64,000 bases of DNA from Sedimentisphaerales bacterium. Its GTDB lineage: Bacteria > Planctomycetota > Phycisphaerae > Sedimentisphaerales > SM23-30. The notes beneath the pieces were generated by a model. That model was not told the origin of the DNA and did not search any database. It saw only the letters and a list, made by a program, of their open reading frames with translations. Made by a program: the position numbers and the translations under genes. Below, piece by piece: positions 25,798 through 26,077 of the stretch (positions within the stretch are counted from its first letter, which is position 1; every line of letters begins with the position of its first letter). The stretch is from the NCBI GenBank assembly GCA_963667715.1, contig OY763926.1, positions 2,654,177-2,718,176 of the forward strand, in the 5' to 3' direction.

Positions 25798-25827
25798 TTG
25801 ACGACAATACAAGATTAGTGCTATAGT
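25798..25827 (+). promoter_or_regulatory. Sigma-70-type promoter for the riboswitch-led transcript
   Basis: TTGACG (25798-25803), an 18-nt spacer, then TATAGT (25822-25827). This lies about 10 nt upstream of the riboswitch P1. Confidence 0.5.
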
Positions 25828-25837
25828 GTTGTCGATA

Positions 25838-25980
25838 ATTCAGTTTATGGAAAAGCCGTGAAAATCGGCTGCGGACGCGCCGCTGTAACCGGTGACAACG
25901 TACCAAGGAAGCCACTGGCAGTAATTGCTGGGAAGGCAGGTACGGAGGATGACCCGGAAGCCAGAATATCTGAACTGAAT
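25838..25980 (+). promoter_or_regulatory. Cobalamin (B12) riboswitch aptamer
   Basis: The conserved blocks occur in the correct order: GCCGTGAAAATCGGC, GCGGACGCGCCGCTGTAA, GCCACTGG...TGGGAAGGC, and a B12-box-like AGCCAGAATATCTG. The 8-bp P1 is ATTCAGTT (25838-25845) / AACTGAAT (25973-25980). Confidence 0.85.
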
Positions 25981-26042
25981 TTACCTGGTAAGCCTTCGCG
26001 AGTAAATCGGCTCCATGTGGTAAATATGAATGTACATATACA

Positions 26043-26077
26043 CCCATGCCCGTATTTTTGAGGCATGGGTTTTTTTG
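26043..26077 (+). terminator. Intrinsic terminator, the expression platform of the cobalamin riboswitch
   Basis: CCCATGCC (26043-26050) / GGCATGGG (26063-26070) form a perfect 8-bp stem, followed by a T7 run. Confidence 0.8.

Follow-up and report, generated by a model that had tools for sequence, protein, structure and literature searches.

A cobalamin (vitamin B12) riboswitch and the genes behind it were analyzed in a 64,000-nucleotide (nt) stretch of DNA from a Sedimentisphaerales bacterium (contig OY763926.1, positions 2,654,177 to 2,718,176). This stretch is called the window below, and positions refer to it unless another locus is named. The riboswitch precedes an operon of four plus-strand genes (open reading frames ORF1 to ORF4), and a convergent gene closes the unit. 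Pfam and NCBIfam recognize only sorting signals in the operon, namely PEP-CTERM in ORF1 and, more weakly, in ORF2, and a prepilin motif with DUF1559 in ORF4. A first-pass annotation made from the sequence had called the operon non-canonical, and indeed 0 of the 4 genes encodes a B12 biosynthesis enzyme, a known transporter, or a B12-independent isozyme. Our literature searches returned no description of this operon. The locus comprises the following features (bp, base pairs; aa, amino acids).

25798-25827, plus strand: sigma-70-type promoter, predicted only (TTGACG, 18-nt spacer, TATAGT), with TG before the -10 hexamer
25838-25980, plus strand: cobalamin riboswitch aptamer, defined by the RF00174 match and an 8-bp P1
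25855-25869, plus strand: conserved block GCCGTGAAAATCGGC, read from the sequence
25872-25889, plus strand: conserved block GCGGACGCGCCGCTGTAA, read from the sequence
25872-25884, plus strand: P5/L5 hairpin GCGG-ACGCG-CCGC, with the L5 loop at 25876-25880; 100% identical in the related locus L086
25911-25917, plus strand: GCCACTG block, with high posterior probability in the RF00174 alignment
25930-25937, plus strand: GGGAAGGC block, with high posterior probability in the RF00174 alignment
25957-25975, plus strand: B12 box GAAGCCAGAATATCTGAAC, at RF00174 model positions of about 155-166, posterior probability '*'
25981-26023, plus strand: P13 hairpin, whose 14-nt loop holds a CGCG (25997-26000) complementary to L5
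26008-26052, plus strand: predicted antiterminator, in which 26008-26021 (including the P13 3' strand) pairs with 26042-26052 (including the terminator 5' strand)
26042-26077, plus strand: intrinsic terminator with a 9-bp stem, an 11-nt loop, and U7 (T7 at 26071-26077)
26078-26439, plus strand: long 5' leader from the terminator to ORF1, 360 nt
26440-27258, plus strand: ORF1, 272 aa, with a signal peptide, a BtuH-like domain, and a PEP-CTERM anchor
27281-27919, plus strand: ORF2, 212 aa, with a signal peptide, a domain similar in fold to the transcobalamin beta-domain, and an anchor of PEP-CTERM type
27948-29069, plus strand: ORF3, 373 aa as the longest ORF, with a BtuH-like domain carrying insertions and a C-terminal dockerin-like module
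29069-29839, plus strand: ORF4, 256 aa, with a prepilin-type N-terminal methylation helix and a DUF1559 (H-X9-D-type) domain

When 4,227 Rfam families were scanned against the whole 64-kilobase (kb) window, RF00174 was the sole match, at 25852-25968 on the plus strand (E 1.9e-16), and its score of 74.3 bits, against a gathering score of 31.5, lies above the threshold proposed as a check. A covariance model of our own, R1, which was built from 11 Rfam-confirmed riboswitches and found 74 riboswitches in all, gave the window aptamer 111 bits. All the blocks that the first-pass annotation had listed for a cobalamin riboswitch at 25838-25980 are present in the right order. The closing helix it had drawn, P1, pairs ATTCAGTT (25838-25845) perfectly with AACTGAAT (25973-25980) over 8 bp, outside the local Rfam match. 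The B12 box, already described as degenerate, keeps its AGCCAG core at 25959-25964 and has a degenerate 3' half. The match covers model positions 49-166 of 189 and leaves the 5' architecture (positions 1-48) unmatched; the 5' part is therefore more compact than the family consensus, and the interval between P1 and the GUGAAAAUC hairpin holds only UAUGGAAAA. The same short aptamer type (model positions 45-169) stands ahead of an ORF2 homolog in Desulfobacca. The window aptamer is a compact 5' variant whose membership in RF00174 stands: it shares P1, the GCCACUG and GGGAAGGC blocks, and the B12 box with the family, and the P6-extension region is present, as in adenosylcobalamin (AdoCbl)-type members. 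It differs from the family in having no separate P2 region matching the first 48 model positions, in its B12 box, in a kissing complement of 4 bp, and in the genes that it is predicted to regulate, which are neither biosynthesis genes, nor btuB/btuFCD, nor genes for B12-independent isozymes.

Comparison with the closest relative, locus L086, revealed that the aptamer core is 100% conserved while the flanks have diverged, and that P1 is kept through a double change from C-G to A-U. The promoter that had been placed just upstream of the aptamer was found at 25798-25827; it matches 10 of 12 consensus positions and is the best such site in the region, and transcription would start at about 25834. 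L086 has TTGACC-16-TAGAAT at the same relative position. Two ORFs overlap the element (25858-26061 on the plus strand and 25736-26047 on the minus strand). As had been suspected, they are most likely non-coding, because they lie on the aptamer and because L086 carries 2-nt and 1-nt indels inside them, which break the frames while the RNA core is kept. The minimum-free-energy fold of the whole leader did not reproduce the aptamer architecture, as expected because the RNA is rich in tertiary contacts.

The perfect hairpin followed by T7, which the earlier annotation had read as an attenuation platform, is a predicted intrinsic terminator whose 9-bp stem ACCCATGCC/GGCATGGGT (ACCCAUGCC/GGCAUGGGU) spans 26042-26070, with -15.3 kcal/mol for the stem alone, and whose T7 runs to 26077. 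A generic terminator scan that limits loops to 8 nt missed this 11-nt-loop terminator, and a custom scan recovered it. Its sequence differs in L086, where the pairing is kept through compensatory changes. P13 forms together with the terminator in the minimum-free-energy fold of the full platform, and its 28-nt hairpin segment CCTGGTAAGCCTTCGCGAGTAAATCGGC is identical in L086. Folding had been proposed as a way to look for an antiterminator, and the partial transcript 25981-26052 is predicted to form one at its minimum free energy (-14.1 kcal/mol). This structure and P13 are mutually exclusive.

Of the 74 related riboswitches, 64 have a strong predicted terminator 50-190 nt further on, a hairpin of 10-14 bp followed by a U-run; transcription attenuation is therefore the predicted family-wide output. 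The window switch, too, most likely works by transcription attenuation. Shine-Dalgarno sequestration is not possible, because ORF1 starts 360 nt past the terminator. In 56 of 62 parsable cases, an L5 complement of at least 4 nt lay in a hairpin loop at +31 to +41 past the B12 box, compared with 28.2 +/- 3.8 (maximum 39) in 300 shuffles. A 5-nt complement occurred in 33 of the 62 (shuffled, 5.0 +/- 2.1, maximum 13). L5 and the downstream loop covary across the family, as TCGCG/CGCGA, ACCCG/CGGGT, and CCCCG/CGGG. The platform probably uses an L5-L13 kissing loop. Two traits resemble the known kissing-loop cobalamin platforms: a downstream hairpin loop complementary to L5, and an intrinsic terminator as output.

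The linkage between riboswitch and operon was then examined across genomes. An alignment-based scan yielded 80 genomic loci with ORF3 homologs (a single-sequence scan gave none), and a same-strand cobalamin riboswitch was present upstream in 73 of these, in Phycisphaerae/Sedimentisphaerales, Kiritimatiellia, and others. Most of the 7 loci without a riboswitch have truncated upstream sequence, and RF00174 was confirmed in 9/9 ORF3 loci scanned with Rfam. For ORF1 homologs, 45 of 54 metagenomic loci, counted only with at least 1.5 kb of upstream sequence, showed an upstream riboswitch. The usual order is riboswitch, ORF2 family (at least 36 loci), ORF3, and ORF4, and the commonest pairing in ORF1-anchored metagenomic loci is ORF1-ORF4. 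In Desulfosarcina BuS5, the riboswitch is followed by DUF4465 and then by homologs of ORF1, ORF2, and ORF3; Desulfobacca acetoxidans has two such riboswitch modules. DUF4465 genes also occur in 7 metagenomic loci of the same riboswitch operon type. At least three phyla conserve the pairing of riboswitch and operon.

Two of these loci carry further genes or elements. In L004, an ORF for a CobO/BtuR-like ATP:corrinoid adenosyltransferase (7338-7973) lies between the ORF2 and ORF3 homologs. In L083 (Desulfobacca acetoxidans CP002629), a cobalamin riboswitch is followed about 200 nt further on by a cyclic di-GMP (c-di-GMP)-I riboswitch at both 2072-2499 and 5528-5944, and the genes behind both tandem pairs encode VPLPA-CTERM members of the ORF2 and ORF3 families. 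Another VPLPA-CTERM protein is preceded by a c-di-GMP-I riboswitch alone (192-267). This arrangement suggests that the Desulfobacca surface proteins may be under two-input control by B12 and c-di-GMP.

For BtuH and DUF4465 proteins, which are encoded in riboswitch-regulated loci, B12 binding has been demonstrated by experiment (PMC8941943, PMC13398666, PMC10404256). BtuH2 of Bacteroides thetaiotaomicron binds B12 via its C-terminal domain, and BtuG1 has a homologous H-domain (PDB 7BIZ, 8BLW; PMC8941943, PMC10404256). The ORF3 family has more than 410 homologs. The AlphaFold2 model of ORF3 (predicted template modelling score, pTM, 0.74) gave as its top three Foldseek PDB matches BtuG1 (8blw_B, E 1.1e-6) and both BtuH2 chains (7biz, E 1.6e-5), with probability 1.0. 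The matches after the BtuH proteins were CBM32 carbohydrate-binding jellyrolls, a resemblance that the BtuH authors likewise noted. The ORF1 family has 1671 homologs, and its profile found a single match among all PDB sequences, the start of the BtuG1 H-domain (8blw_B residues 372-472, E 0.013). The PEP-CTERM signal of ORF1 (PF07589) scored 25.6 bits (cutoff 20.7). A comparison with hhalign shows homology between the ORF1 and ORF3 families (probability 98.3%, E 1.4e-14).

The BtuG1 fragment was used to bring BtuH2 into register with these families. The BtuH2 contacts Asn399 and Phe401, in DFCVQGNA(F), align with DFAVFENGF in ORF1 and DFIIFGN in ORF3; their equivalents N113 and F115 are invariant in the ORF1 family, and the Asn is nearly invariant in ORF3 (N145). 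Besides the DFxxxxN(A/G)F motif that includes these two residues, the proteins have (Y/F)xPAPG, G-ITV-F, and IRN in common with BtuH/BtuG1. A merged profile of ORF1 and ORF3, made in order to map more BtuH residues, no longer gave a signal. Like BtuH and BtuG1, ORF1 and ORF3 are predicted to be riboswitch-regulated, secreted, and surface-located. In contrast to BtuH, described mostly from Bacteroidota and from three Firmicutes (PMC13616437), the ORF1 and ORF3 families occur in Planctomycetota, Verrucomicrobiota, Kiritimatiellia, and Desulfobacterota. They are anchored by PEP-CTERM/VPLPA-CTERM or dockerin, whereas BtuH is lipid-anchored. The signal peptides of the BtuH-like ORFs contain no lipobox cysteine, and their anchors are of the PEP-CTERM or dockerin-like kind. 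The operons also have no nearby BtuB or BtuG partner (those examined contained neither a TonB-dependent transporter gene nor a beta-propeller gene), and ORF3 has large insertions. We do not file ORF1 and ORF3 as BtuH members because the sequence homology is borderline, the binding site partial, the anchoring different, and a BtuB/BtuG partner absent.

A DUF4465 identity for ORF1-3 was considered and rejected, since PF14717 gave no match at E<=5 in ORF1-4. ORF1 has GTPFDL in place of the DUF4465 GTPAYF/NTPAY loop, and the key HI-loop tyrosine is absent. The beta-jellyroll binders of DUF4465 (BtuJ; PMC13398666, PMC12751083) capture corrinoids outside the cell, which is also the ecological role proposed for ORF1-3. 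They occur in Phycisphaerae and Verrucomicrobia, and their genes can share a riboswitch operon with ORF1-3 homologs. The DUF4465 neighbourhoods described in print contain many TonB-dependent and ATP-binding cassette (ABC) transporters, unlike the ORF1-4 operons.

Two observations concern the ORF1 and ORF3 records. The database copy of ORF3 (P0001) has 342 aa, starting at an internal Met and without a signal peptide. This deposited start is probably wrong, because ATG 27987, the likely true start, gives the signal peptide MKKIILLILISTTIIRA and a better fit to the 360-aa closest homolog. ORF1 residues 100-158 weakly match the NCBIfam LIC_13355 family of Leptospira lipoproteins (E 1.2e-8, below cutoff), and the match falls in the BtuH-like core. 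Work on LIC_13355 has treated it only as a host adhesin (PMC11891782); the similarity hints that it might bind B12.

ORF2 belongs to a family of more than 150 homologs, with Desulfobacterota members at about 60% identity. Its AlphaFold2 model (predicted local distance difference test score, pLDDT, 84.3) had as top Foldseek matches transcobalamin and the beta-domain structure 5no0, with a target-normalised template modelling (TM) score of 0.60, probability 1.0, and E values of 5e-3 to 2e-2. The lower-ranked matches were generic beta-grasp proteins, so this fold class is shared with proteins other than B12 binders. The best PDB matches of the model lie with the transcobalamin/intrinsic factor beta-domain and the DUF4430-type proteins (PDB 5NO0, 4ZRP, 3U7Z). 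A search of the ORF2 profile against PDB sequences returned neither transcobalamin nor 3u7z at E<=10, and 33 family members gave no Pfam Cobalamin_bind or DUF4430 match at E<=1. ORF2 resembles transcobalamin in being predicted as extracellular and B12-linked; it differs in lacking the alpha-domain, the other half of the transcobalamin binding site, and in carrying a PEP-CTERM anchor. That anchor scored 13.4 bits in the window copy, below the cutoff, with VPEP...RRRQR visible, and PF07589 was found at E<=1 in 30 of the 33 family members. A comparison of ORF2 with the ORF3 family showed no relationship.

ORF4 scored above the cutoffs for both PF07963 (30.4 bits vs 21.2) and PF07596 (25.6 vs 23.3), its N-terminus can be aligned to PDB pilins, and H212...D222 form an H-X9-D motif in its C-terminal part. 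The methylation motif, the DUF1559 N-terminal region, and H-X9-D are shared with the prepilin-type DUF1559 (H-X9-DG) proteins of Planctomycetes, Verrucomicrobia, and Lentisphaerae. The subgroup differs from these in being encoded almost always directly after a riboswitch-controlled BtuH-like gene. The ORF4 start codon overlaps the ORF3 stop codon in the window, ORF4 directly follows ORF3 in 62 of 69 loci (median gap 5.5 nt), and it also follows ORF1 homologs in 18 metagenomic operons. With 65 columns at least 90% conserved, the alignment marks the subgroup as a tightly conserved orthologous group. We know of no function assigned to the wider DUF1559 family.

We favour a reading in which the riboswitch would be an OFF switch for transcription of the four genes, whose products would capture corrinoids at the cell surface, and we give this reading a probability of roughly three in four. 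The riboswitch itself is an ordinary RF00174 member; the regulon that it exposes is so far undescribed. The family membership of the RNA, its sequence elements, its conserved linkage to the operon, and the similarities in fold and profile are observed. Ligand binding, the direction of switching, the working of the kissing loop, the B12-binding function of the proteins, and the part played by ORF4 are inferred, and the scheme would run as follows. Transcription would begin from the sigma-70-type promoter just before P1, and the aptamer at 25838-25980 would bind a corrinoid. In the ligand-bound state, L5 (ACGCG) would kiss the CGCG loop of P13 (25981-26023). The contact would hold P13 closed and leave 26042-26050 free to pair with 26062-26070 as the terminator, so that RNA polymerase would halt at the U7 tract near 26077 and the operon would be off. 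When B12 is scarce, the P13 3' strand would pair with the terminator 5' strand to give the antiterminator, with read-through across the 360-nt leader into ORF1-ORF4. The products would be secreted, surface-anchored proteins capturing environmental corrinoids: two BtuH-like binders, ORF1 with its PEP-CTERM anchor and ORF3 with its dockerin-like anchor, and ORF2 as a small PEP-CTERM protein with a transcobalamin-beta-like fold. ORF4, pseudopilin-like and presumably translationally coupled to ORF3, may pass the ligand across the envelope. The function of the operon proteins would be analogous to that of the accessory lipoproteins with which Bacteroides captures B12 (BtuH, BtuJ, BtuK).

Several results weigh against this reading. 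On the RNA side, the bare antiterminator helix is weak by itself (-5.4 kcal/mol), the L5-L13 complement in the window is only 4 bp (CGCG), and the 360-nt leader could hold a second promoter. The Ruficoccus ORF1 homolog (L084) has no riboswitch, and no transporter was seen in the operons examined. On the protein side, the ORF1-BtuG1 match is borderline at its E value of 0.013, and the global TM-scores of ORF3 against BtuH2/BtuG1 are low (0.28-0.29). The ORF3 profile, searched against PDB sequences, returned no BtuH and only weak dockerin matches. The residue mapping reached Gln333, Asn399, and Phe401 and did not extend to His476, Tyr510, Trp511, Trp577, and Leu578, and of the residues reached Gln333 is not conserved (PAPGQF in BtuH2 vs PAPGVS in ORF1). 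The link between ORF2 and transcobalamin comes from one method, at E 5e-3 to 2e-2, without sequence support.

In a different view of the operon, the riboswitch is real and the proteins are not B12 binders. They would instead be exosortase-sorted or dockerin-anchored matrix or adhesion proteins, with B12 serving as an environmental cue, for example of B12-producing partners nearby. PEP-CTERM/exosortase systems have been tied to exopolysaccharide and biofilm lifestyles (PMC1569441), and the Desulfobacca gene families stand behind tandem riboswitches of which one senses c-di-GMP, a lifestyle signal. The absence of an encoded transporter, the CBM32 jellyrolls that follow BtuH among the ORF3 fold matches, and the adhesin work on the weakly related LIC_13355 (PMC11891782) point in the same direction. 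However, the best fold and profile matches are B12 binders through two unrelated folds, BtuH-like and transcobalamin-beta-like. Genes for DUF4465, a proven B12 binder, and for a CobO-like adenosyltransferase occur in the same operons, and genes that act directly in the metabolism of the ligand typically show riboswitch linkage as high as the 83-91% seen here across phyla. We therefore consider the matrix or adhesion role unlikely.

The leader between terminator and ORF1 could also be taken to separate the riboswitch from the genes. In that case, the riboswitch with its terminator would be a short RNA of its own, either a B12-sensing small RNA or a decoy, and would not gate the operon in this organism; ORF1-4 would be expressed mainly from a second promoter in the gap. 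AdoCbl riboswitches control non-coding RNAs in the eut regulation of Enterococcus and Listeria, and such an arrangement would suit the unusually long distance from terminator to ORF1 (360 nt). The gap contains a weak promoter-like site at 26397-26424 and the 35-nt block GCCCGACATGAAAGCCTGCAAACTTAAACATGCGA (26187-26221), conserved with L086, which may be a second promoter, an operator, or a processing site. Against this, the block is present only in that closest relative and absent from the other 85 loci, and the gap holds no gene on either strand. A weak-threshold scan, which recovered the RF00174 match, found no Rfam family in the leader at E<=5 and no second element such as c-di-GMP-I. The pairing of riboswitch and operon also persists in 73/80 and 45/54 loci despite very different leader lengths and sequences, and we regard a separate short transcript as very unlikely.

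That the element is a decayed riboswitch without ligand binding, or that the region is protein-coding (25858-26061 plus or 25736-26047 minus), would fit the local Rfam match (49-166 of 189), the degenerate B12 box, and the overlapping ORFs of 67-103 aa, but it is scarcely credible given a score more than twice the gathering threshold, a core fully conserved with L086 between diverging flanks and with indels that break the reading frames, P1 and terminator pairings kept via compensatory changes, and the same short aptamer (45-169) ahead of an ORF2 homolog in Desulfobacca.

The OFF-switch reading of a corrinoid-capture operon leaves room for a more specific proposal concerning ORF4. In the Planctomycetes-Verrucomicrobia-Chlamydiae (PVC) group, there may be a corrinoid route without an operon-encoded TonB-dependent transporter, in which exosortase- or dockerin-anchored BtuH-like binders would hand B12 to a DUF1559 pseudopilin-like periplasmic carrier. 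We put this forward as a speculative proposal that is more doubtful than probable. If true, it would be the first functional assignment in DUF1559, which is among the largest paralogous families in Planctomycetes, and would suggest that the DUF1559 family consists of pilus-mounted solute receptors.

The riboswitch serves as a reliable functional label, marking four families without B12 annotation: more than 1,600 homologs of ORF1, more than 150 of ORF2, more than 400 of ORF3, and a conserved DUF1559 subgroup. Should these proteins prove to bind corrinoids, BtuH-type capture would be far wider than the literature states, reaching into Planctomycetota, Verrucomicrobiota, Kiritimatiellia, and sulfate-reducing Desulfobacterota from the environment. 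Nutrient scavenging would then be a concrete role for PEP-CTERM and dockerin anchoring, and the DUF1559 pseudopilin family would gain a first testable function. Such capture would be relevant to B12 competition in sediments, anaerobic digesters, and marine particles.

Some minor observations were made around the operon and in the related loci. After the operon, both the window (29845-32751) and L086 (10091-12825) encode a 260-aa opposite-strand membrane protein with a faint DUF2140 match and a 580-aa HDOD-domain protein; no B12 link is evident for either. In the window leader, the minus strand has a terminator-like hairpin and T-run at 26163-26190. This hairpin is not conserved in L086, no minus-strand gene ends near it, and it is probably due to chance. 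L081 (Desulfosarcina sp. BuS5 CP087952) carries two identical group II introns with reverse-transcriptase ORFs (2367-4502 and 7974-10109) that flank or interrupt the B12 operon, one of them lying between the riboswitch and a truncated 106-aa DUF4465 gene. L013 has a second cobalamin riboswitch on the minus strand (7961-8135), at the far end of the locus and pointing away from the operon. In Kiritimatiellia, tandem cobalamin riboswitches precede long ORF3-family genes, at 4128-4293 and 4433-4600 in L039 and at 4129-4301 and 4432-4607 in L040.

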